In this document: piece after piece, positions 1 through 53,602 of the stretch
Layout: every line of letters starts with the position of its first letter
How positions within the stretch are numbered: position 1 is the first letter of the stretch
IMG/VR virus record: IMGVR_UViG_3300020723_000003
DNA length: 64,000 bases
Source: a virus
Lineage: Duplodnaviria > Heunggongvirae > Uroviricota > Caudoviricetes
Strand: one strand, 5' to 3'
Made by a program: the position numbers and the translations under genes
Notes under the pieces: model-generated
The model's input: the letters and a program-made list of their open reading frames with translations, nothing else
Database searches by the model: none
What the model was told of the DNA's origin: nothing

Positions 1-585
1 AAAGCTGGTGCTCAATTCGGTACTGTAACTCCTGGTATATTTGATTTAGATACTGACTCAAATGGTCGTTGGTCAGTTGAGCGTTTCAAAGGTTTGATTT
101 ATCATATCGAAAGAGAAGCTAACCAAATCGCGAAAACTACTCGTAGAGGAAAAGGTAACATCTTAATCGTTTCTTCTGATGTTGCTTCTGCTTTAGCAAT
201 GGCTGGTGTATTACAATATACTCCTGCTCTTTCTGCTGATCTACAAGTAGATGACACTGGAAATACTTTTGCTGGTTTGTTACATGGTCGTATCAAAGTT
301 TATATCGATCCTTATTTTGGTGGTTCTGCACAAAACGTAGAATTATGTACTGTTGGTTATAAAGGTACTTCTCCTTATGATTCAGGTTTATTCTACTGCC
401 CATACGTTCCTTTACAAATGGTTCGTGCAGTTGATCCTTCAACTTTCCAACCAAAAATTGGATTTAAGACTCGTTACGGTTTAGTTGCTAATCCTTTTGC
501 TGAAGGTTTAAACCAAGGTTTAGGACAATTAAATGCTCGTGCAAACTTATATTACAGAATTTTTGCTATCAAAAACTTAATGTAA
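1..585 (+). CDS. 23: Major capsid protein gp23, C-terminal portion (5' partial, continues upstream of window)
   Basis: Open frame from base 1 in the frame of ORF 94..585. T4 gp23-like C-terminal motifs (LFYCPYVPLQMVRAVDP...NPFAEGLNQGLGQLNARANLYYRIFAI). Followed by a strong terminator and the conserved g23-g3 neighbourhood. Confidence 0.8.
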   Translation, partial: KAGAQFGTVTPGIFDLDTDSNGRWSVERFKGLIYHIEREANQIAKTTRRGKGNILIVSSDVASALAMAGVLQYTPALSADLQVDDTGNTFAGLLHGRIKVYIDPYFGGSAQNVELCTVGYKGTSPYDSGLFYCPYVPLQMVRAVDPSTFQPKIGFKTRYGLVANPFAEGLNQGLGQLNARANLYYRIFAIKNLM

Positions 586-642: not shown

Positions 643-1983
643 TTAAAAGAAAGAATCAAAAGTAACAATTTCTTCTTCAATAAAATGATCTTTCCATAAT
701 TTATCAGCAACCCTTTTTACTTCAGGATTCTCTTTTCCAACAAGGGGTTGTTCATATTCTCCGCTATTATTACCTCCAAATGCAAGATTAATGAATTGTG
801 AAGCAATAGTTTTTCTATCAAACGATAAAAGTTTCTTTTGATTGTTTTTAATAATTTTAAGATAATCTTTTTCATTAATATTAAAATATTGATTGATAAG
901 ATCACCAAACTCTTTTGGTGTTGCATCATGAGGAATCATTAAATAATTTTCGTTTGGTTTAAATACTTCACCAATACCTTTTTCGTTGTCTGAAACTCCA
1001 AAATTTCTAGCAATAGGGACAACACCATTAAGCATAGAATCAACAATTACTCTATTAAAATGTTCTCCATAATTCATAGACCAACTAGGATCTAATAAAA
1101 ATTTACATGTATCAAGAATTTCGTCACGCTTATTTTCGGTAATAAATCCAATATATGAGAATTTTCCTGAATTTGCAGCATTGTCCCAAATTGGCATATT
1201 TAATCTATCACTACCAGCATTTGGATCTAATTGTTTTGTACAATGATATTCTGGCTTACACTTATCAACGGAAGTCATATAATTCCTTTCAATCCCATCA
1301 CCAGCTACAATAACATATCCATCAATATAGGGAACTGCTGCAATTAAATCATCAACCCTTTTCCACCGCTTAAATGTTTGTAAAGATAAAATTTTATCTT
1401 CTTTTAAAGCAAAAGATGGTATTTTCTGTTTTGATAAATCTTGAGGATTTAAAATTAAATTTCTTGGAACAGTTAAAAAATTAGCTGATTTTACTGCTGA
1501 TGGGTGAACACAAGCAAGACCTGAAAATTTATGTTGAAATTTATATATCCAAGAATAATTCTTAATAAGATTTCCGTCATGAATAACAACAATTTGTTTT
1601 GCTGTTACATCTTCAATCATTGGAGTCCAATCAAGAAAGTGTTCTGTTTCTGAATTTTTAAACCCAAAAATAGATTGCCAAATAACCAAATCATGTTTAT
1701 TTGCATCTTCCACAAATCTAGAAATTTCATTAGTGTTCTTTAAAGCATAATACGGACAAATCCAACCCTTTCCTTGATGGACTGGATATCCAGTCCCCAC
1801 ACCAATCTCATATCCTTCTTTTAAAGAATAATCAAGATCTCCTTTCTGAGGAGTTTTTGTTGGTTTCACAAATGCAAATGTCACATCATGACCAAGTTCT
1901 TTTAATCCAGCACATAACTGCTCATTATGATTAATAATTCCACCAAAATTATTAAACACATGCATAACTACAAATATTTTCAT
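643..1983 (-). CDS. GT-B fold glycosyltransferase (GT4-like)
   Basis: N-terminal MKIFVV...FGG motif. C-terminal EHFNRVIVDSMLNGVVPIARNFG resembles the GT1/GT4 EX7E donor-binding motif. Lies on the opposite strand between g23 and g3. Confidence 0.5.
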   Translation of the reverse strand: MKIFVVMHVFNNFGGIINHNEQLCAGLKELGHDVTFAFVKPTKTPQKGDLDYSLKEGYEIGVGTGYPVHQGKGWICPYYALKNTNEISRFVEDANKHDLVIWQSIFGFKNSETEHFLDWTPMIEDVTAKQIVVIHDGNLIKNYSWIYKFQHKFSGLACVHPSAVKSANFLTVPRNLILNPQDLSKQKIPSFALKEDKILSLQTFKRWKRVDDLIAAVPYIDGYVIVAGDGIERNYMTSVDKCKPEYHCTKQLDPNAGSDRLNMPIWDNAANSGKFSYIGFITENKRDEILDTCKFLLDPSWSMNYGEHFNRVIVDSMLNGVVPIARNFGVSDNEKGIGEVFKPNENYLMIPHDATPKEFGDLINQYFNINEKDYLKIIKNNQKKLLSFDRKTIASQFINLAFGGNNSGEYEQPLVGKENPEVKRVADKLWKDHFIEEEIVTFDSFF

Positions 1984-1995: not shown

Positions 1996-3414
1996 TCAGA
2001 AGAAATCTTCAATACCATTTAATTCAAATGATTTTTTTAACCATGGATGATGTTTTTCTAACCATTCATCACCTTGATCGCCTTTGGATTTTAAATAATC
2101 ATACCACTCTTTTGCTCTAGCATAATCGTGATGTTTGTCTTCAGAGTCAGCCCACATTCCTGGACTTATTCCATTCCAACGGTTTCTTTGTTCTGGATGA
2201 TCTTTGTTTAATCTTCTTGATTCAACAAATATTCTTCTTTCTTGTTCATACTCAAAAGAACCTAATTCAGCCATAGATTCATGAGTAAATGCAATTATTG
2301 ATAATCTTTCTGCATCAGGATCCTCAAGAACAATTGGTGTATTTCCATGTAAACCAACAGTATTTAAAACTAATAATAAATCTCTTGGTCTAACATTTAC
2401 AGCATAACCAATTTCAGGGAATGTTAGATAACCACCAGAAAACTTATCATTATTGCTCATGACACATAAATTTGCCATCCCTAATTCCATATTCTTGGCG
2501 TCATGATGTGCTGCAGTTCTAAAATTACGATTCACAGTTACTGTTGTAAATGGAGTTCCTGGAACTCGAAATTTAGAATCAATTTTTTCTGCTACTTCCA
2601 TTTGATTACTAAATCTCCATGGAAGTAATTCTTTAAATCCTTTAGATAAGGATTGTAAAAATGGATATGCTAATGCAAATTCTTCTGGATTATCTCTGGT
2701 ATAAGATGTTGCTCTACCATATGGAATTCTTGGATATCTTGAATACCAACCAGAAATGCCACTATTAACAACATTAGCATAAGTTGTATCGCTAATATAA
2801 TTATCTAAAATATCTTGTGCTTTCTTTTTTGCAATATCTACCTCTTCGTCACACAATGAATTTGCAAAATCATCAAATATAAAATTATTTGCTTTGATTT
2901 TTTCGGTCAACCAAACAACACCCCTACTCTCATCAGATTTTAATGTTTTATATTTCTCTCTAATTATATTAATTTCTTTTCTTGGATTTCTTTCTCCAAA
3001 AATATCAGAAATATTATTTTTTAAAAAATGTTCAAGAATATCGAATTGCTCATCTGTAACCCATTCTCTTCCGCCACATGTACCTGTTCTTGGTCCACCA
3101 GCAATACCTCTATTTTGAGTTTCAACTGCTGCTTCTCGTAATCCAGCATAAGCTGAATCAGCTTCTTCTTGTGTAAAGAAGTTTTTACGGAATTTAAAAA
3201 CAATATTTTTTTCGTTCAACCCCTTTCCACAATGCCCACAATCCATATTTTTTTCACAATTTTCTTCAGCTGTGAAATCAGCACAATCTGGTGGTAAATA
3301 TATATCACAATCTTCTTCTATCAATGTATGATAATGTGAATCATCTAACCATTGACCTATTAAATCTGGTCTTGGTATAACTTCTTCAGGTTTTAATACA
3401 ATTACTTTTGTCAT
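1996..3414 (-). CDS. 2OG-Fe(II) oxygenase domain protein with N-terminal Cys-rich region
   Basis: C-terminal HHD ... about 60 aa ... HGNTPIV ... RLS is consistent with the HxD...H facial triad plus RxS 2-oxoglutarate-binding motif. N-terminal CxxC pairs (MDCGHCGKG). Confidence 0.45.
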   Translation of the reverse strand: MTKVIVLKPEEVIPRPDLIGQWLDDSHYHTLIEEDCDIYLPPDCADFTAEENCEKNMDCGHCGKGLNEKNIVFKFRKNFFTQEEADSAYAGLREAAVETQNRGIAGGPRTGTCGGREWVTDEQFDILEHFLKNNISDIFGERNPRKEINIIREKYKTLKSDESRGVVWLTEKIKANNFIFDDFANSLCDEEVDIAKKKAQDILDNYISDTTYANVVNSGISGWYSRYPRIPYGRATSYTRDNPEEFALAYPFLQSLSKGFKELLPWRFSNQMEVAEKIDSKFRVPGTPFTTVTVNRNFRTAAHHDAKNMELGMANLCVMSNNDKFSGGYLTFPEIGYAVNVRPRDLLLVLNTVGLHGNTPIVLEDPDAERLSIIAFTHESMAELGSFEYEQERRIFVESRRLNKDHPEQRNRWNGISPGMWADSEDKHHDYARAKEWYDYLKSKGDQGDEWLEKHHPWLKKSFELNGIEDFF

Positions 3415-27911: not shown

Positions 27912-27912
27912 T

Positions 27913-28836: not shown

Positions 28837-28839
28837 ATT

Positions 28840-30174: not shown

Positions 30175-30177
30175 GTT

Positions 30178-30864: not shown

Positions 30865-30865
30865 T

Positions 30866-31492: not shown

Positions 31493-31493
31493 T

Positions 31494-33764: not shown

Positions 33765-33782
33765 TTAATTGAAGGTGAACTT

Positions 33783-35549: not shown

Positions 35550-35551
35550 TT

Positions 35552-36484: not shown

Positions 36485-36486
36485 TA

Positions 36487-37665: not shown

Positions 37666-37672
37666 GGGTTTT

Positions 37673-38518
37673 ATGAATTCAATTAGAGAAAAGGTAAAAG
37701 AACTTAGTGTTGTTTTTGTAGGTCCAACAAGAGATAGTTCTGGAAATCTTACAAAAATATTTGAGAATATTGAAAGAATTGGTGGACTATTTAAATCTTT
37801 TTCTTGTGTATTTGTGGAAAGTGATTCTTCTGATAATACTTTAGAAATTCTTAAAAATTATAAAAGTGGTCGCGATAATATTCATATACTTTCTTTAGGG
37901 AAATTAGAAGATAGAATTAATTCTAGAACATGTAGGATTGCTACAGCAAGAAATGTTGGGATTGAATATTGTGAACAAAATAATATCTTAGATACTCATG
38001 ATTATTATATTCATATGTGTGTTGATGATGTTAATAGTGAAAAGATTGAAGAAGAAGATTTCTTAAGTTGCTTTAAATACGACATATCTTCTTGGGAAGG
38101 TATGACAGCAAATCAGTTAAATTATTATGATATTTGGTGTTTACGAGCAAAAGGTTGGGTTGAAAATGATTGTTGGTATGCAATTCATAATAGACCTTCT
38201 TATATGTCTTATGATGAAGCATTTATAATGTATGTAGGATCTAAATTTATACAAATTCCAAAAAATTACGGTTTAATTGAAGTTGATGCTGCTCATGGCG
38301 GTTTTGGAATCTACAAAAGTTCTTTTGCTAAAGGTTCTCGGTATAGAGGTTCTTCTGAAGCTGGTAATGCAGAAGAATGTGATTTAGTAAATTTCTGTAG
38401 TGATGTTAAGAAGAAAGGTGGAAGAATATTTATAAACTCAGAATTGATGAATATGAATAATGTAAATAATAGACATGATACCACAGTTCAAAGTTTACGA
38501 TCTTTAGGTAAATTGTAA
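37673..38518 (+). CDS. Hypothetical protein
   Basis: 281-aa ORF. Confidence 0.4.
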   Translation: MNSIREKVKELSVVFVGPTRDSSGNLTKIFENIERIGGLFKSFSCVFVESDSSDNTLEILKNYKSGRDNIHILSLGKLEDRINSRTCRIATARNVGIEYCEQNNILDTHDYYIHMCVDDVNSEKIEEEDFLSCFKYDISSWEGMTANQLNYYDIWCLRAKGWVENDCWYAIHNRPSYMSYDEAFIMYVGSKFIQIPKNYGLIEVDAAHGGFGIYKSSFAKGSRYRGSSEAGNAEECDLVNFCSDVKKKGGRIFINSELMNMNNVNNRHDTTVQSLRSLGKL

Positions 38519-39303
38519 TGGGAAATATTACTAATACAAATATTCATGGGTCGTGTCTATTAGGGTCTCAAATGTTTGAGTATTCTTATTTAATTGCTGT
38601 TTCTTTAGAAAATCCTGGAGTTGTTCCAGGATTTTATTTAAAAAATCTTCCTGGAATGTTTGGTTTGTTAATAAATTTTCCATTTATACATAAACCTAAA
38701 ATTTTTGAAGGAGAATGTGATTATTCTGGTATAAACTACAATCCTTCTGATGTTTTAGCTTTTGATCGTAATTATGATATACATTTCAATTTCGATTATA
38801 GCATTTTTCATAAACATAAAGAATATTTGTTAAATTTATATACATTTTTGCCAGAAATATATTCTAATTGTAATACATGGATAAAAGATAATTCTTCACC
38901 AGACGAATTGTTAGTTTCAATCCATTTTAGAAGAGGCGATTATTTATCGATTTCTTCATTAAACCTTTCTTTAGAATATTTTTATGGAGCAGTTGAAACA
39001 ATTAAAAATAAACTTCCAAATTCAACATTAAAATTTGTGTGTTTTTCTAATGATATTACATGGGTGAAAGAGAAATTTGTTGGTATAGATAATATGATAT
39101 TTGTTGAATCGTTATCTGATCCTGAACAAATGTGTTTAATGTCTTTATGTGACCATAATATCATTGCAAATAGTAGTTATAGTTGGTGGGGTGCATATTT
39201 AAATAAGACACCTGAAACAATAACTATTTGTCCATCAAGTTATGGTAGTGCAGATGTAATAAGTTATTATCCTGATGAATGGATAAGAATGAACGTGCTT
39301 TAA
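38518..39303 (+). CDS. Alpha-1,2-fucosyltransferase-like (GT11)
   Basis: VSIHFRRGDYLS matches GT11 motif I (HxRRGDY). Confidence 0.6.
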   Translation: MGNITNTNIHGSCLLGSQMFEYSYLIAVSLENPGVVPGFYLKNLPGMFGLLINFPFIHKPKIFEGECDYSGINYNPSDVLAFDRNYDIHFNFDYSIFHKHKEYLLNLYTFLPEIYSNCNTWIKDNSSPDELLVSIHFRRGDYLSISSLNLSLEYFYGAVETIKNKLPNSTLKFVCFSNDITWVKEKFVGIDNMIFVESLSDPEQMCLMSLCDHNIIANSSYSWWGAYLNKTPETITICPSSYGSADVISYYPDEWIRMNVL

Positions 39304-40319
39304 TTGAGATTAATATGATAATAGAATCTGATGTAAATAATATAATAAAATCTATAGATTTTGAAAAACTAAGGAATAAATCTATCTTAATCACAGGATC
39401 TTCTGGGTTATTAGGAATTTATTTTGTTTCTTGTTTAAAAACAATACAGAAAGAATATAATATTGATGCTTATTTTTGGATAAAAAGTGATATTGATTCA
39501 AATTTTAAATCCTTTTTTGATTTTGATTGTCATATAATTAAGGAAGATATTAGCGATCTAAAAGCATTCGATTCATTACCTATGTTTGATTTTATTATTC
39601 ATTCATCAGGTTATGGTCAGCCAGATAAATTCTTAGAAGATCAGATAAAAACCATCCAAATAAACACCACAGCTACAATTAATTTATTTGAAAAATTAAA
39701 TCCAAATGGAACATTTTTATTTTTAAGTTCTAGTGAAGTTTATAATGGTTTAGATAAGTTTTCTGTGTCAGAAGATGAGATCGGGGTATCAAATACAACT
39801 AACCCTAGAGCGTGTTATATTGAATCAAAGCGTTGTGGTGAAGCTATTTGTCATATTCAAAAAAATATGGGTAAAGATGTAAAAATTGCTAGATTGAGTT
39901 TAACATATGGTCCAGGAACAAAACCGTTTGATACTAGGGTTGTTAGTTCTTTGATTCAAAAATCTATATTAAATGATTCTATAGAATTGAGAGATAGGGG
40001 CGAAGCTATTAGAACTTATTGTTATATTTCTGATGTAATAGAAATGATGTGGAATATTATTTTGCATGGAAAAGAAGTGACTTATAATGTTGGTGGAAAT
40101 ACTACATTTAGTATATTTGAAATGGCAAATATTATCTCTACTAAAACGAATAAACCAATACTTTTGCCAGAAACATCAAAAACGTTAACTGGCAGCCCTA
40201 AAGTTGTTAATATTAATATTGATAAGTATATATCCGAATTTAACAAAACTTCATTCATTGCTCTTGATGAAGGTTTAAATAATACAATTCTTTGGCAACA
40301 ACATATATACAAAATTTAA
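39279..40319 (+). CDS. NAD-dependent epimerase/dehydratase
   Basis: ITGSSGLLGIYF Rossmann motif; YIESK YxxxK. Confidence 0.5.
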   Translation: MDKNERALIEINMIIESDVNNIIKSIDFEKLRNKSILITGSSGLLGIYFVSCLKTIQKEYNIDAYFWIKSDIDSNFKSFFDFDCHIIKEDISDLKAFDSLPMFDFIIHSSGYGQPDKFLEDQIKTIQINTTATINLFEKLNPNGTFLFLSSSEVYNGLDKFSVSEDEIGVSNTTNPRACYIESKRCGEAICHIQKNMGKDVKIARLSLTYGPGTKPFDTRVVSSLIQKSILNDSIELRDRGEAIRTYCYISDVIEMMWNIILHGKEVTYNVGGNTTFSIFEMANIISTKTNKPILLPETSKTLTGSPKVVNINIDKYISEFNKTSFIALDEGLNNTILWQQHIYKI

Positions 40320-40436
40320 CATCAGAAAATGTGATAATATTTGAAGTTCAACATGGTGATAAGTGTATTGAAGAAGATATTATTAGAATTTAATTGATTT
40401 ATAAATACTTAAATAACTTTTAAATTTTGGGTACTT

Positions 40437-41369
40437 ATGAAATCTTTTAGACAATTTATCGTAGAATCTGTTAGACAAGGTTTACCACACATTTCTACAA
40501 TGACACATGAACAATTCGGTAATCTTACAAAAGGTGGAAAAGTTCATATTAATCATGTAACAGAAAAAACTGATGGTCAAACAATGGTTTTTGGGCATGA
40601 TGAACATGGTTTTTATACTCAATCTTCTGGTTCTGGAAATGAAAAAATGCGAGCTCCGGAACATTATGCTGAAAGAGCAAAACGTAGAGCAGAAGAAACA
40701 GGAAAACCATTTGATCCAACTTCGTCAAACGCATTTGGTGATATCCATAAGCACCTCCAAAATAATAAAGCCCTCCAAGAACACCTAAAATCAACATATA
40801 AAAAAACTGGTAATGAAGTAAAAGTTAGGGGAGAATCTTTTTATAAACCTTGGGGTAGACCTAGCGAAGTTCCTGGAGAAGTAAAATTTGTTGGCACTTC
40901 CTATGACCCTAGTCATATGGGAACGGTTGGTAAATTTGTGATTCATAGTAAATTGCCAGAAAATCAAGGTCATGATTTAGAACATTTTAAAAAGAATTTA
41001 TCTGATAAAAATATAAATTTTGATGATGATATTATAGAGCATAAGTCTGGTCATGTTGATGTTTCTCCAGAAAAGAAAGATTTTGATGATTTAAATCATG
41101 AATTATTAAAATCAAGAAAAACTAAAAAAAATTCAGAAGATAAAGAAGTTGAGACTGCTAAATTTAATGCAATAAAACAAAAAGTTTCTGATAAAGTTGA
41201 TTCTCACATCAAATCTCAAAATATTAAACCGAAATGGGGTACAGGTACTGAAGGTGCTGTAATACACCCTCCAAAAGAAAATCCTGATGCTCCAAGATTT
41301 AAAGTGACAAGTGATGCATTTAGAAAATATAAAAGTTCCGATGAATCTAAAAACTTATTAAAGAGATAA
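40437..41369 (+). CDS. Hypothetical protein with capsid-targeting-sequence-like N-terminus (MKSFRQFIVE|S)
   Basis: 310-aa Lys/His-rich protein. Its first 10 aa resemble the T4 IPIII/Alt CTS MKTYQEFIAE. TATAAATA late promoter at 40391. Confidence 0.5.
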   Translation: MKSFRQFIVESVRQGLPHISTMTHEQFGNLTKGGKVHINHVTEKTDGQTMVFGHDEHGFYTQSSGSGNEKMRAPEHYAERAKRRAEETGKPFDPTSSNAFGDIHKHLQNNKALQEHLKSTYKKTGNEVKVRGESFYKPWGRPSEVPGEVKFVGTSYDPSHMGTVGKFVIHSKLPENQGHDLEHFKKNLSDKNINFDDDIIEHKSGHVDVSPEKKDFDDLNHELLKSRKTKKNSEDKEVETAKFNAIKQKVSDKVDSHIKSQNIKPKWGTGTEGAVIHPPKENPDAPRFKVTSDAFRKYKSSDESKNLLKR

Positions 41370-41373
41370 TTAA

Positions 41374-42849
41374 ATGCTAAATTTTAAACAATTTTTACAA
41401 GTTTTAACAGAAGGCGGGAACATTAAGATTGGAGAATCAGAGGCTAATCCAATTCATATTACACCTGAAAATAGAAAATCTGTTACTTCTGATATTGGTG
41501 GTTTTTTACATGGATTGAGTAATTCTCATAAAATGGTTCATGGTTCTCATTTATTTGGAAATAATTCTTCGGCACTTGATGATGGGTCAGCATTTTCTGG
41601 TTCCACTCATCATTTATTTGATAAAACGATCAGTGATAAAGAATTCGCAAAACATAAACCTGTTGTTGGTGATATTGATGTAAAAGTTCCAAAACAACAT
41701 CTTGCTACATTAGAACATCATTTAGTTCCAGGAAAACAAATAGGAAAATATACTGTTGTTGGTGTTAAACATGGAGCTGGTGGACATCATGCTTTAATAA
41801 AACACGAAAATGGACAAATACATCAAATAGATTTTGAAGGTTCAAATTATGAAAATGATAAACCATCAGATTTTGATAAATTCGCACATAGTTCTAATTG
41901 GAAAGATGTAAAAGAAGGAATTAAAGGCGCACATCATAAGATGCTATTGAATGCGATTGGAACTGATAAACACAAATTTTCAATTCTTTATGGTTTAGGT
42001 TCTAGAGAAGGAACTGACCCAAAATGGGAAAACAATAAAAATAAAATATCTTCTACATTATTTGGAGAAAAAGCTCCAGTTAAAAATTTAGAGTCGTTTC
42101 ATGGATTAGTTAAAAGTATTAAAAATCATATTCCAGAAGAAAAACATCAAGAAATTTATGACAAATTTAAAGATTCTGCAAAATCTTCTAGAGGAATAAA
42201 TTTTTCTTCTGCATTATCTCATATGAGAAAACATCTTAATGTTCATGATAATACTATTCAAGAATCTGTTGAAGAAGTACATCATGCATCAGTAGTGCCA
42301 ATAACTGGGTTTGTTCCAATTTCTCATGAAGGGCATAAATTGGATTTAGGAAATACCCTAAATAGATTACCTGGAAGTAAACATATCGGAATTTCAGGAA
42401 AATCTGATGCTTATTCTCCAGAAGAAAGAAAGGATGTTCTTGAAAGGCAATGGGGAAAAGGAGTAACGGCACATAATGTTTCCGGTGCTGGGCAAACAAT
42501 AAGAGCAGCATATGATTCTTTACCAAAAACAGGAAAAAAAGTATTGCATTTATTGGTGGGTCATGATAGAAAATCCCTTGCCGATGGATTAAAGTCTTCT
42601 TTAGAAGCAGGAAAACTTAAGGAAATGCATGGTTTAGCTTTTGATGAAATACACATTCATCATCCAGAAGATACAAAAAGAAGTCATGGTATGAGTGGAA
42701 CAAAAATGAGAGAAGCTGCAGCAGCAGGTAACATAGAAGAATTCCATAAACATTTAGGTCCAAATTTTACTAGAAAAGAAGCTGAAGAACATATGTCAAG
42801 ATTCCAAACTGGTATTAAAAATGGAACAATTCCTCTAAAAAGAAAATAA
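41374..42849 (+). CDS. Hypothetical His-rich protein with CTS-like N-terminus (MLNFKQFLQVLTE|G)
   Basis: 491-aa ORF. Contains a GDIDV motif, a possible nucleotidyltransferase-like fragment. Confidence 0.5.
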   Translation: MLNFKQFLQVLTEGGNIKIGESEANPIHITPENRKSVTSDIGGFLHGLSNSHKMVHGSHLFGNNSSALDDGSAFSGSTHHLFDKTISDKEFAKHKPVVGDIDVKVPKQHLATLEHHLVPGKQIGKYTVVGVKHGAGGHHALIKHENGQIHQIDFEGSNYENDKPSDFDKFAHSSNWKDVKEGIKGAHHKMLLNAIGTDKHKFSILYGLGSREGTDPKWENNKNKISSTLFGEKAPVKNLESFHGLVKSIKNHIPEEKHQEIYDKFKDSAKSSRGINFSSALSHMRKHLNVHDNTIQESVEEVHHASVVPITGFVPISHEGHKLDLGNTLNRLPGSKHIGISGKSDAYSPEERKDVLERQWGKGVTAHNVSGAGQTIRAAYDSLPKTGKKVLHLLVGHDRKSLADGLKSSLEAGKLKEMHGLAFDEIHIHHPEDTKRSHGMSGTKMREAAAAGNIEEFHKHLGPNFTRKEAEEHMSRFQTGIKNGTIPLKRK

Positions 42850-42851
42850 CT

Positions 42852-43757
42852 ATGCAAAAATATCAAGCAATCTTTGTTATTGGTAGTCCAGGTTCTGGTA
42901 AAGATGTTATTATCAGAGATACAATTTCAAATTTCAACATTGTTGAATTTACATCAACACAAATAGATGAGATGTTATCTGATGACTCTGTATTTAAAAG
43001 AGCAAAATACGAAAAAAGAAATTCTCTTTTAGAAAGAAAATCTATTTTAGTAACCGCAAATTCTTTTGACTTGGGATTTATTCTTACAAAATCTGTATTA
43101 GAATCTGTTGGATATACTCCACATTTAATTTTTGTTGAAGCCAATCTTTCTGTTTCTTATGATAGATTACATAATAGAAATAATCTTAAAGAGTCTCTTG
43201 AAAGAATAAGTATTGGAAATAATAATAAATCTTCTATTTTAGAATTATTTGATTCTTTGTTTGTTGTTGACAATTCAGAAAATTTAGATTTAACTGAATC
43301 AAGAGAATTTATTTCAGATATTTTGAGCGAATTATCATTTAAATCGGATCTAACTGTTGAGCGTGTATTAAATGTAAATTTGAGAGATAAATTACAAAAA
43401 ACATCAAAACCAACAATATCAAGACAAGTTCCTGGACCTGCTGCAATAGTTTTACCTATTATTGATAGTTTTGATTCTAAAGAAAAGAAAAAAACAATAA
43501 AAAAATACCCAAAAACACCAAGTTATTTTTTTGATGGTAGTGGAGATCAACAACCAAACATTGCGTTGGGTGAAGCGGAAGATTGGCCTATTGCTTCTCC
43601 AGGATTTGGTGATGCAATGATGGGAGCTCCTGGACAACAATCTTCTGCTCCAGTAACTAATTTGGGTTCTGATCAACAAAAACAAGATATAAAAAAAGTT
43701 TTGAATAAAATTAAAAAAATTCATTTTAAAACTGCAATACCAAAACAAATTGGATAA
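42852..43757 (+). CDS. P-loop kinase-like protein (resembles polynucleotide kinase N-domain) with low-complexity tail
   Basis: YQAIFVIGSPGSGKDVIIRD resembles T4 Pnk IILTIGCPGSGKSTWAREF. C-terminal half is S/G/Q/K-rich. Confidence 0.4.
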   Translation: MQKYQAIFVIGSPGSGKDVIIRDTISNFNIVEFTSTQIDEMLSDDSVFKRAKYEKRNSLLERKSILVTANSFDLGFILTKSVLESVGYTPHLIFVEANLSVSYDRLHNRNNLKESLERISIGNNNKSSILELFDSLFVVDNSENLDLTESREFISDILSELSFKSDLTVERVLNVNLRDKLQKTSKPTISRQVPGPAAIVLPIIDSFDSKEKKKTIKKYPKTPSYFFDGSGDQQPNIALGEAEDWPIASPGFGDAMMGAPGQQSSAPVTNLGSDQQKQDIKKVLNKIKKIHFKTAIPKQIG

Positions 43758-43789
43758 AATATTTTAAATCATTTAAGTAAGGAATTTTA

Positions 43790-44329
43790 ATGAAACTTCA
43801 AGATATACAAAAAATGTTAAGTGAGAGAAAATTAACAAAAGCAGAATCAAAAAAGAAAGAAGAAATTGCTCAAGCAATGGAAAAAGAACATCCTGGGATG
43901 GGTTCGACTCCAGAAGGAATGTCAAAAAAAATGGCAATTGCAACTGCTCAAGCAAAAAAGTGCTGTGAAGAAATAGAAGGCGAATTAGAAACTGAAGAAA
44001 CTTTAGATGAAGTTTCTAATTATGATTTAGTTGTAAACTATTATAGACATTTAGGTTTAGATCCATATAAACTACGTGGCGTAGTTGGCAAACAATTAAG
44101 AACAAAAATTAAAACTTCTCCAGCATTTCAAGCATGGGCAAGAATTAATTCTAGTTTTGAATATGAAAAGAAATATACTCAAATTATCGAAAAAATAAAA
44201 GAAGCTAAAAAAGAAGCAAAGGGAAAAGTTCAAATTGATTTTTTTGGATATCCTGAATCAACAGCAAATACTTCTAATTCAGATAAAGATATTGCTCAAA
44301 CTGATGATAATTTCATAACCCCAAATTAA
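43790..44329 (+). CDS. Hypothetical Lys/Glu-rich protein
   Basis: 179-aa ORF. Confidence 0.4.
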   Translation: MKLQDIQKMLSERKLTKAESKKKEEIAQAMEKEHPGMGSTPEGMSKKMAIATAQAKKCCEEIEGELETEETLDEVSNYDLVVNYYRHLGLDPYKLRGVVGKQLRTKIKTSPAFQAWARINSSFEYEKKYTQIIEKIKEAKKEAKGKVQIDFFGYPESTANTSNSDKDIAQTDDNFITPN

Positions 44330-44383
44330 AATTTTTAATAAATACTATTATAATTTTTATCATATTAAAAAAGGAATAAAACT

Positions 44384-44956
44384 ATGTCAGGTTGGAAAAA
44401 TACAGACGCTCAAGCAAATAACGAACCATCTTATATTACCCATATTGGGATGCCACAACCAATAACAAATAATTATAGCAACAATACGGTTTTAGTTGAT
44501 GCTTCTCGTTTAGCAAATGCTAATGTTCAATTTGGAGTTTCTTCAAAAGGAACATCACATACTGGTTGGGTTCATTACCAACATGGAACAGGTCCTTTGG
44601 CTTCTATTACTGTTGCTAATGTTACTCCAGGACTTGTATATTCTAATGATTATTTAACTATTGTTGGCGCAAATACAGCTTCTTTTGTTAATACTCCTTA
44701 TGTCGCAGCTAATGCTCAAATTATTGTTACTGGTGCAAACACAATTACCATTCAAATTAATAGTGTCGGTTCTGGTTTTATTCAAGACCCAACTGTAGTT
44801 TCTTCTACTTCAGGTAATGCAAATAATGCAACTTTAGTATTTACTGGTAAAGCAGGCGGAAGAGCTAATAGAGTTAAATCTGAAGTTTTAGTTGCTTTGT
44901 CATCTCCTACTTCAACAAATGCTAATGGCGCTGAACCTTGGTTCCATGGCGTATAA
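44384..44956 (+). CDS. Hypothetical T/N/G/V-rich protein (possibly structural)
   Basis: 190-aa ORF, beta-rich composition. Confidence 0.35.
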   Translation: MSGWKNTDAQANNEPSYITHIGMPQPITNNYSNNTVLVDASRLANANVQFGVSSKGTSHTGWVHYQHGTGPLASITVANVTPGLVYSNDYLTIVGANTASFVNTPYVAANAQIIVTGANTITIQINSVGSGFIQDPTVVSSTSGNANNATLVFTGKAGGRANRVKSEVLVALSSPTSTNANGAEPWFHGV

Positions 44957-44959
44957 TTT

Positions 44960-45346
44960 ATGAAGTCGTTTAAAGAATTTAAATCGTATCTACAGGAGCA
45001 TCAATCTCCTGTAGCATATATTGATACTACTGGAACTCAAGATATCGCTATTCCTGAAATTCGTAATGAATTAAACCGCCATATAAGTTTGATTTTTCGT
45101 CAAAGTTTTGTGACAGTTGAATCTGCAGTGCAAAGATTAGCAAAACTTTTATCTATGTATAGTCTTGATATTCCACAAGTTGATTCAAATGATAAAGATT
45201 CGGATACATTAAAAATAATTGTTGGGCATAATAATACAAAATGGGACGAATTTGATGGAAAAGTTGAAAATGATAACCCATGGATTTTAATATTTTCGTA
45301 TAAATTAGAAGACGGATTGTATAAGTGCTCAGCTAAAATAAAATAA
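44960..45346 (+). CDS. Hypothetical protein with CTS-like N-terminus (MKSFKEFKSYLQE|H)
   Basis: 128-aa ORF. Confidence 0.45.
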   Translation: MKSFKEFKSYLQEHQSPVAYIDTTGTQDIAIPEIRNELNRHISLIFRQSFVTVESAVQRLAKLLSMYSLDIPQVDSNDKDSDTLKIIVGHNNTKWDEFDGKVENDNPWILIFSYKLEDGLYKCSAKIK

Positions 45347-45352
45347 TATATT

Positions 45353-45739
45353 ATGTTTGATGAATTGACTCCAGAAAATTTTGTATTATTTGCTGCAAAA
45401 CACTATTGGTCTATACACTATTCAATGGCTGAGTTTGAATCAGATTTACAAAGAATAGTGTATATAAAAAGGCTTTTGAAGAAATACAAAAAAACTGGAG
45501 TCGTTTCAGAAAGGTTAATTCTTAATCATCTTATATTATTGTATAATGTCTTTGAACCGACCGTTGCTGTTAATAGAATGTTATTTTTTAAAATAGATTC
45601 AGATTGTTACTCTAGTTTAAAAACGTTTCTGGTATATTTAAATAGGATACCAGAAACAATTATAATAAATAATAATATAGTTGTTTCTTCAGATATTCAA
45701 GTAGATATGAATGTTGCAAATTTATTAAGGGTTTTATGA
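45353..45739 (+). CDS. Hypothetical protein
   Basis: 128-aa ORF. Confidence 0.4.
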   Translation: MFDELTPENFVLFAAKHYWSIHYSMAEFESDLQRIVYIKRLLKKYKKTGVVSERLILNHLILLYNVFEPTVAVNRMLFFKIDSDCYSSLKTFLVYLNRIPETIIINNNIVVSSDIQVDMNVANLLRVL

Positions 45740-46575
45740 AAGGTTTTAAACAATTTGTATTAGAAAAAGTAGAACATGAAAATCCGAATGCCGGAAGTTT
45801 ACACGTTCTAGATGTTGATGATACATTAGTACACCCAAAAGCACAAATCCATGTTGTTCAAAATGGAGAAAGAGTTAAATCGCTACATAATTCCGAATTT
45901 AATACCCACAAACTAGAACCTGATCAACACTATGATTTTAGTGAATTTAGAAATTCTGATACGTTTAGCAAATCTGCTCCAATTCAAAAAATGATTTCTA
46001 AAGTAAAAGCAATCCATAAGAATATCTCAAGTAATCCAAATCATAGAATTATTATCAATACTGCTAGATCAGATATGGATAATAAACATACATATCTTAA
46101 TACTTTTAAGAAATTTGGTCTTCCGATTAACGATATACATGTATATAGAGCTGGTAATGATACTGGATCGGATACAGTTGCTGTTAAAAAGGCAAATGTA
46201 ATATCAAAAATATTAGAAAAACAACCATATAAAAAAGTTCATGTATATGATGACGGAAAAGAAAATTTAGATGCCGTTCATAAATTAAAACAAAAACACC
46301 CTGAAACAGAATTTCATACCTATCATGTTCAACATGATGGTTCTGTTAAAAAATACAAACCTACAAATTTAAATGAAGATGGTGGTGCTGCAGGCGGTAT
46401 TGGCGGTGGTGGTGGAAATACTGTCGGTGGCGGAGCAATAGCTGGAGTTGGGGTAAATAATCCTTCTGTTGGGCCAAATCAAGGGGAACCTGGAGTTTTT
46501 CCAAAATATAAAAAAAGAAAATCGGATTTTCCAAAAAGTCCTGTCTTAACACAAATTCTTGCGAGAAAAAACTAA
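45736..46575 (+). CDS. HAD-family phosphatase with CTS-like N-terminus (MKGFKQFVLE|K) and Gly-rich C-tail
   Basis: HAD motif I LDVDDTLV, motif II IINTAR, motif IV YDDGKENLD. Resembles the Pnk phosphatase domain or 5'-deoxynucleotidases. GGAAGGIGGGGGNTVGGG tract. Confidence 0.55.
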   Translation: MKGFKQFVLEKVEHENPNAGSLHVLDVDDTLVHPKAQIHVVQNGERVKSLHNSEFNTHKLEPDQHYDFSEFRNSDTFSKSAPIQKMISKVKAIHKNISSNPNHRIIINTARSDMDNKHTYLNTFKKFGLPINDIHVYRAGNDTGSDTVAVKKANVISKILEKQPYKKVHVYDDGKENLDAVHKLKQKHPETEFHTYHVQHDGSVKKYKPTNLNEDGGAAGGIGGGGGNTVGGGAIAGVGVNNPSVGPNQGEPGVFPKYKKRKSDFPKSPVLTQILARKN

Positions 46576-46576
46576 A

Positions 46577-47116
46577 ATGGACAAATATCTAAATAAAATT
46601 AAATCAATCGTTGATAATAATGGTTTTGAGCGTCATTATAAAGAAACAGAAATTGTTGAATCTGTTGATGATACGTTAGAGAGAGTATTGTTTGAAGCAA
46701 GAAGTCCAGCCAATCCCCCAGAAGAAGCTAACGATCCATCTTCAAAAGAAGGAATTTCAAATACTGTTGCTAGTGAATTTTTTGCTAGAGCAAGAGCTTT
46801 AGCGACTGTTACTCATTTTGCACATTTAAGTACAGATTCGTTTTCTGAACATATAGCTTTAGCTACATTTTATGAAGAAATTGTTGAATCTATTGATACT
46901 TTTTGTGAAGCGTATATTGGAAAATATGGTAAATTTATAAATCTTCCTCCAATCGCTGCTGAGATGCAACAAGCAGTTGATGCAATAATTGAATTTAGAG
47001 ATTGGATGGATAAGAATCGTAGTTTAATTACTGATGATAGTTCTCTACAAAATATAATAGATGAAACAGAACAATTATGTAATAGTACAGTATATAAATT
47101 ACAGAAATTAAACTAA
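46577..47116 (+). CDS. Hypothetical protein
   Basis: ORF 46559..47116; likely start at the internal Met MDKYLNK. Confidence 0.4.
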   Translation: MDKYLNKIKSIVDNNGFERHYKETEIVESVDDTLERVLFEARSPANPPEEANDPSSKEGISNTVASEFFARARALATVTHFAHLSTDSFSEHIALATFYEEIVESIDTFCEAYIGKYGKFINLPPIAAEMQQAVDAIIEFRDWMDKNRSLITDDSSLQNIIDETEQLCNSTVYKLQKLN

Positions 47117-47143
47117 ATTATTTTCTCTTTTTAGGTATTTTTT

Positions 47144-47326
47144 ATGGTAACTTATGAACAAATAAATACTACGTTATATTATAATGAAGTATTGTCTACT
47201 AAGAAAGAAGAAAGAATAGATTTTAATAAATGTCAGAAAATATTAGATTCTTTTGAGTCGTATTCTAAAAAATTAGATAAATTAATAGAAACTGTAAATA
47301 CCGAAAAAAATAATTATAAGGATTAA
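47144..47326 (+). CDS. Hypothetical small protein
   Basis: 60-aa ORF. Confidence 0.3.
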   Translation: MVTYEQINTTLYYNEVLSTKKEERIDFNKCQKILDSFESYSKKLDKLIETVNTEKNNYKD

Positions 47327-47329
47327 GTT

Positions 47330-47770
47330 ATGGCAGAAAACCAACTTGAAAATTCTATTATTATGGATTTAAAAGTTGAAGTGGCTATGTTAAAAAAAGA
47401 AGTTTCGTTCATTAATAAATTATTTGAAAAAATGGATGTTGTGATTAATAAAATTGATTCACAACATGACATATTAATAGACAAAACTACTAAAGTTGAA
47501 TCAACCCTTTCTTTTACTAAAGAAGAATTGGTTAATTTATATACATCTTTTGAACAAACTGAAAAAGAAATTTCTGAAAGAATAAATTCTATAGAAAGAT
47601 TATTAACAGAAGAAATTAAAACAATTAATCACGATTTGTCAGTAAGATTAGATAAACAAGAAAAAATTACTGGTAATCTATCAAATATAAAGATGATGGC
47701 TTTAGGAATGATTGCTCTTGTTACTTGGTTAGCTTCTAATCTTGATTTTATAAAAAATGTGTTACATTAA
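47330..47770 (+). CDS. Coiled-coil protein with C-terminal TM helix
   Basis: 146 aa. Heptad-like composition and a hydrophobic C-terminus MMALGMIALVTWLASNL. Confidence 0.4.
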   Translation: MAENQLENSIIMDLKVEVAMLKKEVSFINKLFEKMDVVINKIDSQHDILIDKTTKVESTLSFTKEELVNLYTSFEQTEKEISERINSIERLLTEEIKTINHDLSVRLDKQEKITGNLSNIKMMALGMIALVTWLASNLDFIKNVLH

Positions 47771-47776
47771 AATAAC

Positions 47777-47835
47777 TTTACAAATTGTGTATTTTATAGT
47801 ATAATAAAGCCTGGATATAATTTCAGGCTTTTTTA
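47777..47835 (+). promoter_or_regulatory. Early promoter (TTTACA-17-TATAAT, extended TATAGTATAAT) immediately followed by a stem-loop plus T-run (PeSL-like)
   Basis: -35 at 47777, -10 at 47800. AAGCCTG-gatataattt-CAGGCTT then TTTT at 47807..47834. Upstream of primase. Confidence 0.55.
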
Positions 47836-47845
47836 TGGATATTGT

Positions 47846-48856
47846 ATGAGTATTTACATTGATCGAAAATATATTCTTTTGTTATCTCCAAAATTAGAAC
47901 AATTTAAACAAAAGAATACAAATCTTTTTAATATGCGTTGTCCATATTGTGGGGATTCAGAGAAAAACAAATCAAAAGCAAGGGGATTTGTTTATGAAAA
48001 AGATAATCATTATTTTTTTCGTTGTCATAATTGCGAAACTGGAACAACTTTAAGAAATTTAATTAAATTCCTAGATCCATATCTTGAGAAAGAATATGTT
48101 ATGGAAAATTTTAAAGATTTGAGTTCTGAAAAAAAAATTAAAATCCCTAAAATTCCTAAAATTCCAATATTTAAAACAAAAGAAGCTGTAAAACCAAAAC
48201 TGGATTTACCAACAATTTCGTCATTATCTGATGATCATATTGCAAAACAATATATACTAAAAAGAAAGCTTCCAGATTATTCTCTAGATCTTTTATATTT
48301 TGCGGAAGATTTTAAATCTTTTACAGAAAGTGTTTCTGATAAAAAATTAGATAGAACAAGCCCAAGAATTGTGATTCCATTTTTCTCTGTTGATGGGAAA
48401 TTGATTGCATTTCAAGGAAGAGCTTTAGATGATTATTCGATGAGATATATCACAGTTAAAATTGATAGAGATGTTGAAAAAATATTTGGTTTAGATAGGG
48501 TTAATACAAAAAAACAAATTATTGTAGTTGAAGGACCGTTTGATAGTTTGTTCATACCAAATGCAGTCGCCGTTGCCGACTCCAATTTAGCTGCTGCAGG
48601 TAATATTTTTGATAAAGGTACTTTGGTATTAGTTCCTGACAACGAGCCCAGAAACCGAAATATAGTAGAAAATGTTGAGAGGTTTATAAAATCTGGATTT
48701 TCTGTTTGTTTATTTCCTGAATCTATTAAAGAAAAGGATATTAATGAAATGGTACTTTCTGGGTTGACGAAAGAGGAAATATCAGGTATAATAAATCAAT
48801 ATACATATAAAGATTTAAGGGCGAAATTAGAATTTATAAGATGGAGAAAAGTTTGA
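47846..48856 (+). CDS. 61: DNA primase gp61
   Basis: Zinc finger CPYCGDSEKNKSKARGF...RCHNC matches T4 gp61 CPFCGDSQKDKNKARGH...CFNC. Toprim-like C-terminal region. 336 aa. Confidence 0.8.
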   Translation: MSIYIDRKYILLLSPKLEQFKQKNTNLFNMRCPYCGDSEKNKSKARGFVYEKDNHYFFRCHNCETGTTLRNLIKFLDPYLEKEYVMENFKDLSSEKKIKIPKIPKIPIFKTKEAVKPKLDLPTISSLSDDHIAKQYILKRKLPDYSLDLLYFAEDFKSFTESVSDKKLDRTSPRIVIPFFSVDGKLIAFQGRALDDYSMRYITVKIDRDVEKIFGLDRVNTKKQIIVVEGPFDSLFIPNAVAVADSNLAAAGNIFDKGTLVLVPDNEPRNRNIVENVERFIKSGFSVCLFPESIKEKDINEMVLSGLTKEEISGIINQYTYKDLRAKLEFIRWRKV

Positions 48857-49007
48857 AAAGTGAAAAATTTAAAACGACTTTAAAATTTAAAGTTAATGGT
48901 GTGGAATATGTAAGGGTCGATGGGATTTGGTTCAAATATTTGAATGATGCCTATATGCCATCAAAAGATTCAACGGTATTAGAACAATTATACAAAGAGA
49001 AATATAT

Positions 49008-49835
49008 ATGATGAAATCTCAAATTCAAGTTAAGATGATTGAAGATTCAATTTCAAAAACTAATAGAATCTGTACATTACAATTAAAATATCATAGATAT
49101 ATACATGCGGAATTTATGACACATCGTGTTTTTTCTAGATCTGCATCCAGTTCAAGAGCAATACCAATCAAAAAAATTATATCAGAAGTTTGGAATAATC
49201 CAGCAACGCCATTGCATTGGGGTCAAAATATTTCTGGTATGCAAGCTAAAACTGAATTAACTGGTATTAAATTATACTTAGCAAAAACCTTTTGGAATCT
49301 TGCTTCTAAATTTGCTTGTATTCTTGCATATTTTATGTACAATATAGGATTACACAAACAAATTGGAAATAGAATATTAGAACCATTTTCTTTTATTAAT
49401 GTCATTTTAACATCTACTGAATTTGATAATTTTTTTGAATTAAGGATTCATCCCGATGCTCAACCAGAAATACAAGAATTAGCTAAACAAATTAAAGAAG
49501 CTATTGATAATAGTAATCCAAAGTCTTTAGAAGATGGTGATTGGCATCTCCCTTATATTTCATATGAAGAAAGAGAATTATTTGATGTTACTGATCTGTT
49601 AAAAGCTTCTACAGCAAGGTGTGCTAGAGTTTCATATAATAATCATGATGGAAGTTTGCCTTCTGTTACTAAAGATATTCAATTACACGATAGATTGGTT
49701 GGTTCTAAACCATTACATGCTTCTCCTGCCGAACATCCAGCAAAAGCAGAAGGAAATGATACATTTTATAAGAATTTTAAAGGATGGAATCAATATAGAA
49801 CTATTCTTGAAGATACAGTTTTTAACAAACGATAG
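49008..49835 (+). CDS. thyX: Flavin-dependent thymidylate synthase ThyX
   Basis: ThyX signature RHRx7S (THRVFSRSASSSRA). 275 aa. Confidence 0.8.
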   Translation: MMKSQIQVKMIEDSISKTNRICTLQLKYHRYIHAEFMTHRVFSRSASSSRAIPIKKIISEVWNNPATPLHWGQNISGMQAKTELTGIKLYLAKTFWNLASKFACILAYFMYNIGLHKQIGNRILEPFSFINVILTSTEFDNFFELRIHPDAQPEIQELAKQIKEAIDNSNPKSLEDGDWHLPYISYEERELFDVTDLLKASTARCARVSYNNHDGSLPSVTKDIQLHDRLVGSKPLHASPAEHPAKAEGNDTFYKNFKGWNQYRTILEDTVFNKR

Positions 49836-49844
49836 GAACATATT

Positions 49845-50261
49845 ATGAGTAAAATAGATACAAAAGATTATCAAGATTTCGTAAAGAAGACAATTTCTCC
49901 TGCATCAAGTGATGTTTCATCATTTTTGACAAGATTAGACTCTTTATATGTTGATTCTATCCCACTACAAATAAAACTTCCAGAATTATTAACAGCATCT
50001 GCTGGATTATCTGCTGAATCAGGGGAATTTACTGAAGTTGTTAAGAAAATATTATTCCAAGGGAAACCATTGGACGAAGATAATATCTATCATATGAAAA
50101 GAGAATTGGGTGATATTTGTTGGTATCTTGCTGTTGCATGTACAGCACTAAATACTACACTAGAAGATATTCTTGTTATGAATGTTGAAAAGTTATCAGC
50201 TCGTTATCCTCAAGGGTTTGAGATTATTAAATCTGAAATTCGTCAAGATGGTGATATTTAA
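49845..50261 (+). CDS. mazG: MazG-like nucleotide pyrophosphohydrolase
   Basis: ELGDICWYLAVA EExx-type MazG motif. 138 aa. Confidence 0.6.
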   Translation: MSKIDTKDYQDFVKKTISPASSDVSSFLTRLDSLYVDSIPLQIKLPELLTASAGLSAESGEFTEVVKKILFQGKPLDEDNIYHMKRELGDICWYLAVACTALNTTLEDILVMNVEKLSARYPQGFEIIKSEIRQDGDI

Positions 50262-50278
50262 AAATAAAATATAAAAGG

Positions 50279-52419: not shown

Positions 52420-52594
52420 TTTTGTGTACTGAAATATGACGAAAATATTCCTAGTTCATTTGGCGGAACTTATAGAGAAAATATTACTACTAAAAAGATT
52501 CAAAAATTACTTATAGATAAGTTTGGTGCAATTGATAAACAGTTGGGTTCATATGCTAAACACCATACAAATAAAATAAAAGAGGAAATTGAAA

Positions 52595-53590: not shown

Positions 53591-53602
53591 TATAGAGTTA
53601 TT

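Follow-up and report, generated by a model that had tools for sequence, protein, structure and literature searches.

A putative T4-type capsid targeting leader on four clustered genes of an uncultured T4-like lake phage

The stretch of viral DNA analysed here, 64,000 nucleotides of IMG/VR record IMGVR_UViG_3300020723_000003 (called the window throughout), is the replication module of a T4-like myovirus of about 30% G+C, with genes for gp47/gp46, gp44, gp43, UvsX, gp41, gp61, Td and NrdAB. A 15-kb sugar-nucleotide biosynthesis cluster (around 25000–40300) separates gp41 from four genes whose products start with a similar leader of 10 or 13 residues, on mature parts that are otherwise unrelated. 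The leaders and genes are listed below, with a slash at the predicted cut.

40437..40466, plus strand: leader 1, MKSFRQFIVE, with F4, F7, I8 and E10; predicted cleavage after E10, next residue S11
40437..41369, plus strand: gene 1 (cargo 1), 310-residue predicted RNA-ligase-fold nucleotidyltransferase with an invariant K44-T-D-G47
41374..41412, plus strand: leader 2, MLNFKQFLQVLTE, with F4, F7 and L11-T-E13; predicted cleavage before G14 (/GG)
41374..42849, plus strand: gene 2 (cargo 2), 491 residues; predicted Pol-beta-type nucleotidyltransferase (NTase; around residues 14–290) fused to an NMNAT/PPAT-like HxGH adenylyltransferase (around residues 300–491)
44960..45346, plus strand: gene 3 (cargo 3), 128 residues, opening with leader 3, MKSFKEFKSYLQE/H, with F4, F7 and L11-Q-E13; predicted new N-terminus H14
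45736..46575, plus strand: gene 4 (cargo 4), 279-residue HAD-superfamily phosphatase with a C-terminal Gly-rich tail, opening with leader 4, MKGFKQFVLE/K, with F4, F7, V8 and E10; predicted new N-terminus K11

All four open reading frames (ORFs) had been reported, with these N-termini, in a first-pass annotation made from the sequence by itself, and each was confirmed, as was the description of the first product as rich in Lys and His (13.2% and 6.1%) and of the second as rich in His (8.6%). The genes are not contiguous, being interleaved with four that have no canonical leader (at 42852, 43790, 44384 and 45353).

The strict pattern ^M..F[KR][QE]F was searched for in all ATG-started ORFs of at least 40 residues on both strands of the window, and the four leader ORFs were the only matches. 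The window's own amino-acid frequencies predict 0.0026 such starts per window, and in 2000 residue shuffles the count averaged 0.005 and never exceeded 1; four were observed. A looser pattern also picks a UvsX-like ORF at 21757 and gave as false positives UvsY (4093), the dioxygenase SSM1_034 of cyanophage S-SM1 and the endonuclease gp51 of cyanophage S-CREM2; the statistics are therefore given for the strict pattern. No replication or nucleotide-metabolism protein of the window carries the strict leader, and scans of such proteins in S-SM1 and S-CREM2 gave poor or internal matches only, as with gp51. The first-pass annotation had named a leader shared by clearly cytoplasmic early proteins as the kind of evidence that would speak against it, and these searches of the window, S-SM1 and S-CREM2 bear on that point. 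A Sec or Tat signal peptide was considered and rejected, as the leaders are charged and have no hydrophobic core.

Among 256 metagenomic homologs of gene 1 the start of the mature protein, (S/G)-IRQGLPHITTM, is highly conserved, while the leader, 10–28 residues placed immediately before the conserved SIRQGLPH, is variable in sequence. Its final residue is Glu in 114 of 114 leaders, with Leu or Ile at P3 in 111, Val in two and Met in one, and 103 of the 114 start M-x-x-phi-x-x-phi. Orthologs keep the aromatic residues at 4 and 7 and the L/I-x-E, while positions 2, 3, 5 and 6 and the codons vary freely (ATGTTACGATTT, ATGAAAACATTC, ATGCTAACTTTC, ATGAAGTCTTTT). The gene 2 family, taken as 150 cluster representatives, contains 43 members with a leader ending [LIVM]-x-E directly before 'GGN' and 31 leaderless members that begin M-GGN, exactly at the predicted cut. 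The homologs in Xanthomonas phage X1 and Vibrio phage Va1 open with MGGN, and that of the T4-like Campylobacter phage CP220 has a leader of its own (MKLSELMFILE/GGN). In the HAD family of gene 4 (227 homologs) the start is almost always M-x-x-F-x-x-[FY]-[ILV]-x-E, followed by a variable linker and then DxDxT, and nearly all of the 120 members listed have the leader start.

The leader also follows the splitting and fusion of genes. Across 37 related viral loci, where the NTase and the NMNAT-like domain are encoded separately both genes have a leader, and polypeptides that combine ligase, NTase and NMNAT-like parts (906, 981 and 2202 residues) have a single one, at the N-terminus. In AlphaFold2 (AF2) models the leader lies outside the fold and is predicted to form a short helix; for gene 2, with a mean predicted local distance difference test score (pLDDT) of 93.8, residues 1–13 are the sole segment below 50, and for gene 1 the pLDDT over residues 1–20 is below that of the body. 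Taken together, the family junctions, the leaderless homologs, the split and fused genes and the models show the leader behaving as a detachable N-terminal module, needed once per polypeptide and joined through what would be a head-protease recognition site.

The NTase-domain homologs P0277, P0337, P0340, P0356 and P0358 read M-GGN, then a leader-like stretch ending L-x-E, then GGN again (e.g. MGGNLVIKSFKRFLAE/GGNV), and look as though a leader had been inserted just past the original start.

The first-pass annotation had likened the leader to the capsid targeting sequence (CTS) of T4, MKTYQEFIAE. Amber-suppressor mutagenesis of the IPIII CTS, as summarised in a T4 review, assigned targeting to residues 4 and 7 (Tyr4 and Phe7) and processing to residues 8 and 10; the equivalence of Phe and Tyr at position 4 comes from the T4 suppressor data only, as cited in that review. 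The prohead protease gp21 cleaves after the Glu of L/I-X-E, and T4-type propeptides are 10–19 residues long. In T4 the change E10D stops processing and leaves targeting intact. The window leaders match the CTS at the mapped positions, all four having F4 and F7 followed by I/V8-x-E10 or L11-x-E13 (cleavage sites I-V-E, L-T-E, L-Q-E and V-L-E), and the parallel therefore extends to both the targeting and the processing residues.

The partners that such a sequence would need are encoded by the same phage. ENA contig L176, which is 100% identical to window positions 1–6324 and reaches further upstream, encodes TerL, gp18, gp19, the portal (Portal_T4), a Peptidase_S77 (the gp21 prohead protease), a T4_CASP scaffold (gp22) and Gp23. 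The phage thus has both a gp21-type protease and a gp22 scaffolding core, with the protease gene just upstream of the window. On this contig the gp23 propeptide ends ...RQTLNE/TTTNVAGG and the protease starts MKLLNE/F.

Leader-bearing proteins have been recovered from purified cyanophage particles. In S-SM1 'a putative citidylyltransferase (T4-GC190)' was detected in purified virions (Sullivan et al, 2010) and is flagged structural in File S1. Its gene, SSM1_190, starts MKKFSAFLNE/AERS and lies between gp41/mazG and gp61, the genomic slot of the window cluster; all 120 of the closest relatives listed for it have the leader start. Its neighbours SSM1_188, 191, 192 (MLSFKELQE/K), 195 and 197 are flagged structural as well, after the last spreadsheet column, which is offset by one row, had been realigned using the GenBank T4-GC notes. 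The virion-detected NMNAT of S-SCSM1, ORF91, starts MKSFLQFLKE/AAES, and most of ORF90–97, upstream of primase, are labelled virion proteins. The S-CREM2 virion proteome contains 52 of 219 ORFs, including all three strict-motif ORFs, gp6 (MKDFDSFLEE/FDRD...), gp14 (VKRFDAFLTE) and gp154 (MKNFSSFLTE/ADEK...), for which p is about 0.013 against the 52/219 background. Leader-like starts are also found on the detected gp13 (MKDLHSFLTE), gp136 (MQTFSMFFSE) and gp155, and gp12, with an internal ...LRFASFMAE/AAV, was detected too.

In S-CREM2 gp12, annotated 'Cas9' (OR473000 7704–10313, minus strand), ...KKPLRFASFMAE/AAV lies 16 residues in, and the annotated start is probably too far upstream. The same probably holds for P-SSM4 PSSM4_093 (L124 5839–6507), where an internal MYYQDFIKLVE/GNP resembles T4 MKTYQEFIAE. 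A second recurrent module was seen after the leader, approximately G-L-x-H/Y-x-G-x-G-x-Y/W-x-D-x-x-G (LNLKHIGYGRYADPSGNV, LNLKSDGHGGWYDSRGEF, MGLEYRGFGYWADKNTGKI), in S-SM1 SSM1_190, S-SCSM1 ORF91, S-CREM2 gp14 and gp12 and loci L041 and L046; it might be a core-binding or DNA-binding element.

The cyanophage papers report the detection of virion-associated NMNAT, kinase and 'SAM hydrolase' proteins and mention no packaging mechanism or targeting sequence. A full-text search for papers connecting the CTS with cyanophage proteins found none, the sole paper naming both being a T4 review. The earlier statement that outside T4-type coliphages such cargo sets have not been characterised calls for qualification, as virion enzymes have been reported in cyanophages, where the leader went unrecognised, and processed ejection proteins in phiKZ-like phages.

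A search of other viral DNA, which the first-pass annotation had proposed for genomes of this phage group, found the leader in at least 120 stretches of DNA in IMG/VR, using the 10-residue form M-K-x-F-[KR]-[QE]-F-[L/I/V/M/F]-x-E. Among the matches listed nearly all lie exactly at an ORF start with no in-frame ATG upstream, and the mature parts behind the leader fall into at least 49 unrelated cargo clusters, which include HxGH nucleotidyltransferases, RlpA-like, ParB-like and methyltransferase-like proteins and ADP-ribosyltransferase (ART)-like candidates. T4-like core genes are present in 73 of the 81 listed loci of at least 6 kb, and gp21 in 13 loci. One IMG/VR contig (L084, 27% G+C) has four consecutive minus-strand genes (4803, 5904, 6361 and 7196) that all start MKTFKQFI[TSL]E; one of its leader genes continues KIFYRGLSD and is possibly an ART of the R-S-E type, an analogue of T4 Alt.

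The first-pass annotation had also placed a late promoter before the cluster. Two candidate motifs lie in the region:

40400..40407, plus strand: TATAAATA, T4-type late-promoter-like motif, 29 nt before the first leader-gene ATG
44337..44344, plus strand: AATAAATA, late-promoter-like motif, 39 nt before the gene at 44384

Of 28 related loci, 13 carry an NATAAATA motif 20–45 nt ahead of the orthologous first gene; these are the ones in which an intergenic gap precedes it. A per-gene count showed no significant excess of TATAAATA ahead of leader genes (15/210 vs 85/2023, p = 0.055), and we therefore rely only on conservation of the motif at the orthologous intergenic position. A late-promoter-like motif does precede the cluster, and late expression of the leader genes is plausible. 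Sigma-70-like sites were not above shuffle expectation. A metatranscriptome 'cytidylyltransferase' considered as timing evidence was dropped, being a different gene of the lipopolysaccharide (LPS)-heptose pathway.

Since the same tag is found on enzymes in purified cyanophage particles, the leader most likely loads the window enzymes into the head. It is in our judgement probable that it is a T4-type CTS, removed by the prohead protease, and the interpretation of the first-pass annotation is to that extent supported, by comparative evidence and by published proteomics of homologous or analogous proteins. The leader would be a short amphipathic propeptide, either M-x-x-F-x-x-F-(L/I/V)-x-E or longer with L-x-E at its end. 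Its binding partner is most likely the scaffolding core of the prohead during assembly, and a protein attached to it would in this way be incorporated into the head. Once the shell has formed, the gp21-type serine protease (Peptidase_S77) would cut after the Glu of L/I-x-E, releasing the mature enzymes inside the capsid with N-termini S11, G14, H14 and K11. By analogy with T4 IPI–III and Alt, the enzymes would then exit together with the DNA and be active in the host ahead of any phage gene expression. The mechanism itself is that of T4. In the literature searched, neither its apparent occurrence in distant aquatic T4-like phages, with enzymes as cargo and at least 49 cargo clusters, nor its use to account for 'non-structural' virion enzymes appears to have been described.

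Several observations weigh against this interpretation. The virion data come from other phages, and packaging, cleavage and injection in the present one are read by analogy. At least one match of the strict motif is probably false: S-SM1 SSM1_034, which is not flagged as structural. Among leader-like ORFs, S-CREM2 gp92 and gp175 (both below 70 residues) were undetected in virions, and S-SCSM1 gene 30 (106 residues) has no virion-protein label; the S-CREM2 authors themselves noted that abundant non-structural proteins might co-purify. The leader of the HAD protein has Val at P3 where the T4 consensus is Leu or Ile, the late motif is not significantly enriched per gene, and the kinase-like gene within the cluster is leaderless, so the cluster is not uniformly cargo.

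The co-purification caveat also fits a different explanation, in which the leader is an uncleaved amphipathic helix with another role, such as docking the proteins to one another, to the membrane or at a replication/repair factory, and its appearance in virions is contamination. The short helix predicted by AF2 would fit this, and cargo enzymes that fusions tie together in function might conceivably share an assembly tag. A docking helix, however, needs no invariant Glu (114/114) with Leu or Ile at P3 at a domain junction, nor would leaderless homologs be expected to begin exactly at the predicted cut. As the tag precedes at least 49 unrelated cargo clusters and is nearly confined to T4-like contigs, and as virion detection follows the leader in three phages, we regard this explanation as unlikely. 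The Glu-ended junction does suggest a processing site, and a short N-terminal tag of basic and hydrophobic residues could be a proteolysis signal unrelated to the capsid, such as a ClpXP/Lon-type tag or a host-protease pro-sequence that times cytoplasmic activity. This would seem more doubtful still, as the junction fits the specificity of the head protease that the phage itself encodes, the T4 CTS is matched at its targeting residues, and the tagged proteins are recovered in virions rather than lost.

The remaining explanations do without a function of the peptide. T4-like phages encode RegA, which binds AU-rich initiation regions; regA is annotated in both S-SM1 and S-CREM2, and the four leaders are AT-rich, as is the genome. 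The likeness could then reside in the RNA, as a shared translation-initiation region acting as a RegA-like repressor operator or an enhancer. Orthologs, however, keep the amino-acid pattern while codons vary freely, leader length ranges over 10–28 residues with the constraint at the C-terminal end, and the regions upstream of the four genes are dissimilar; an RNA-level element was rejected on these grounds and is very improbable. Chance resemblance, or the remnant of a local duplication, might be suspected from the adjacency of the genes and from an AT-rich composition that favours K, F, I and N codons. It is effectively refuted by the comparison of sequences, given four strict starts where 0.0026 are expected, mature parts of unrelated folds, and conservation of the leader over hundreds of homologs per family.

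The predicted CTS thus remains the preferred interpretation, and several known systems can be set beside it. With T4 IPI–III the window proteins share an N-terminal propeptide of about 10 residues (MKTYQEFIAE vs MKSFRQFIVE) with aromatic residues at 4 and 7, L/I/V8 and E10, placed on otherwise unrelated proteins; several such genes are clustered in a variable region, and gp21, gp22 and gp23 are present. They differ in that the window cargo consists of proteins of 128–491 residues (up to 2202 in relatives), enzymes among them, whereas the T4 proteins are small basic inhibitors of GmrSD-type restriction. The mature window proteins have no sequence homology to the internal proteins, Phe stands at position 4 where T4 has Tyr, leaders of 13 or more residues are common, and the phage is very distant from the T-even coliphages, with packaging here read from its genes. 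We would thus regard them as predicted to be IP-like in packaging and as lying outside the IP families, being neither homologous to them nor small basic inhibitors. T4 Alt offers the precedent of a head-carried enzyme that is processed by gp21, injected and active at the onset of infection, and leader-bearing ART-like candidates occur in the related contigs L084, L026, L101 and L113. Alt propeptides, on the other hand, are unlike the IP-type CTS, the processing of Alt extends to its C-terminus, and none of the four window proteins is an ADP-ribosyltransferase.

The NMNAT/cytidylyltransferase, kinase and 'SAM hydrolase' proteins of cyanophage virions (S-SM1 T4-GC190, S-SCSM1 ORF91 and S-CREM2 gp154, gp14 and gp6) include the same NMNAT-like HxGH class as the predicted C-terminal domain of gene 2, have the same leader (MKKFSAFLNE, MKSFLQFLKE, MKNFSSFLTE) and, in S-SM1 and S-SCSM1, occupy the same gp41–gp61 slot. 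Gene 2 differs in adding the Pol-beta NTase domain, and the similarity is distant, 27–29% identity over 70–100 residues. In phiKZ, 201phi2-1 and SPN3US a gp21-related protease likewise matures many inner-body and ejection proteins by cutting after the Glu of a three-residue motif; that motif, however, reads S/A-x-E, propeptides there are long, a short N-terminal address of the T4 kind that could be transferred has not been defined, and the phages are of another lineage.

The first-pass annotation had suggested profile searches and structure prediction for the four proteins. Genes 1–3 and the kinase-like gene gave nothing significant in Pfam, NCBIfam or PDB sequence profiles, so that genes 1 and 2 were assigned functions from predicted folds and motifs: a ligase fold for gene 1, NTase and NMNAT folds for gene 2. 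Gene 1 has the predicted fold and the motif I lysine (KxDG) of the ATP-dependent RNA ligase/covalent nucleotidyltransferase superfamily, to which it would belong, and the C-terminal domain of gene 2, with a modelled Rossmann-type fold and (H/T)xGH, can be placed among the NMNAT/PPAT-like HxGH nucleotidyltransferases. Gene 3 has no family or phage match and no relative in viral contigs other than L130, whose single homolog starts MLSFRKFLAE/MHT. Searches with tblastn against phages gave no match for genes 1 and 3 and one, uncultured, for gene 4.

The identification of gene 4 as a HAD phosphatase was borne out. HAD motifs I–IV are invariant in the family (D26-x-D28, T109, K152 and D172-D173, with T30 nearly invariant), its best PHROG match is phrog_415, a 'polynucleotide kinase' family (E 2e-7), and family members match Pfam Acid_phosphat_B and Hydrolase_6. 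Its Gly-rich tail is the counterpart of a separate small cyanophage virion protein (T4-GC426, S-SCSM1 ORF97). In the closest relative, L130, the position of the HAD gene is taken by a 65-residue protein (7867) that consists of leader and Gly-rich tail alone (MISFKQFLEE/DGAAGG...). The window protein therefore looks like a HAD domain inserted between a leader and a small virion peptide.

The fusion of ligase, NTase and NMNAT-like parts in single polypeptides indicates that genes 1 and 2 are functionally linked. Together, the ligase, the HAD phosphatase and the P-loop kinase, which lacks a leader, recall the healing and sealing of RNA ends by T4 Pnkp and Rnl1, although an alternative role related to NAD, as proposed in the cyanophage papers, may apply. 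That the enzymes counteract host defence through RNA end-healing and sealing and/or nucleotide-cofactor chemistry is put forward with low confidence. More tentative is a broader proposal, which we think improbable as a whole, that the leader is a general, sequence-readable label of the injected T4-like proteome across aquatic environments, delivering at DNA entry, ahead of any phage transcription, a kit for RNA end-healing, sealing and nucleotidyl transfer against RNA- or NAD-targeting defences. The kit would comprise the Rnl-like ligase, the HAD phosphatase (which resembles the Pnkp phosphatase domain), the Pol-beta NTase and the NMNAT-like domain.

If the leader works as in T4, the injected proteins of uncultured T4-like phages could be read from sequence. 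T4-like phages are among the most abundant viruses of oceans and lakes, so a large catalogue of candidate first-wave effectors would follow, with ligases, nucleotidyltransferases, phosphatases, kinases, and ART-like and ParB-like proteins. It would also explain the recurring NMNAT/cytidylyltransferase-like and other 'non-structural' enzymes in cyanophage virion proteomes, reduce the question of contaminant or cargo to the presence of neo-N-termini directly after Glu, and supply natural CTS variants with which foreign proteins could be packaged into the capsids of phages other than coliphages.

The four genes interleaved with the leader genes are the following.

42852..43757, plus strand: kinase-like gene, P-loop kinase-like, no leader (MQKYQAIFVIGSPGSGKD); weak AAA_33/Zeta_toxin/UMP-CMP kinase matches only
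43790..44329, plus strand: 179-residue Lys/Glu-rich protein, start MKLQDIQKMLSE/RKLTKAE; matched by the loose pattern only
44384..44956, plus strand: 190-residue protein, no leader; probable counterpart of cyanophage virion protein T4-GC425
45353..45739, plus strand: DUF7207 protein, no leader; synteny anchor; Pfam E 1e-37

Homologs of the kinase-like gene in related loci are likewise leaderless. The product of 43790 may be a fifth cargo with a divergent leader, because its L130 homolog begins MDFKKLKQIIAE/KHLTKAE. The 190-residue protein shares position and size with T4-GC425 (S-SM1 SSM1_195, S-SCSM1 ORF95), which is flagged structural, and has a weak C-terminal match to it, and the DUF7207 protein is 46% identical to S-SM1 SSM1_196 and 45% to S-SCSM1 ORF96. 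After the HAD gene, the listed start of a DUF5856 (ferritin/Dps-like) ORF is a TTG at 46559 (end 47116); gene callers use the ATG at 46577, giving 179 residues, and with this start there is no overlap with the HAD gene.

The phage has no close relative in GenBank. The best matches of its DNA polymerase are all cyanomyoviruses, at no more than 47% identity, and blastn of the leader-gene cluster against GenBank phages gave zero matches. It has been seen repeatedly in the lake metagenomes of JGI 3300000162, and JGI record TB03JUN2009H_c000014 is 100% identical to window positions 35736–53791. The window begins inside the major capsid gene, with two further genes before gp3.

94..585: C-terminal end of gp23, the first listed ORF (163 residues, TTG start)
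643..1983, minus strand: glycosyltransferase-like gene, inserted between gp23 and gp3
1996..3414, minus strand: Tet_JBP-family dioxygenase, inserted between gp23 and gp3

The Tet_JBP dioxygenase, the glycosyltransferase-like gene and the sugar cluster suggest glycosylated, hydroxymethyl-type hypermodified DNA, which is what the T4 internal proteins protect against type IV restriction. The NrdA large subunit is encoded in two ORFs (51271–52419 and 52589–53590), each with an Intein_splicing Pfam match, and there could be a split or disrupted intein in this ribonucleotide reductase. A peptide deformylase gene (PF01327; 11074–11670) adjoins gp46.

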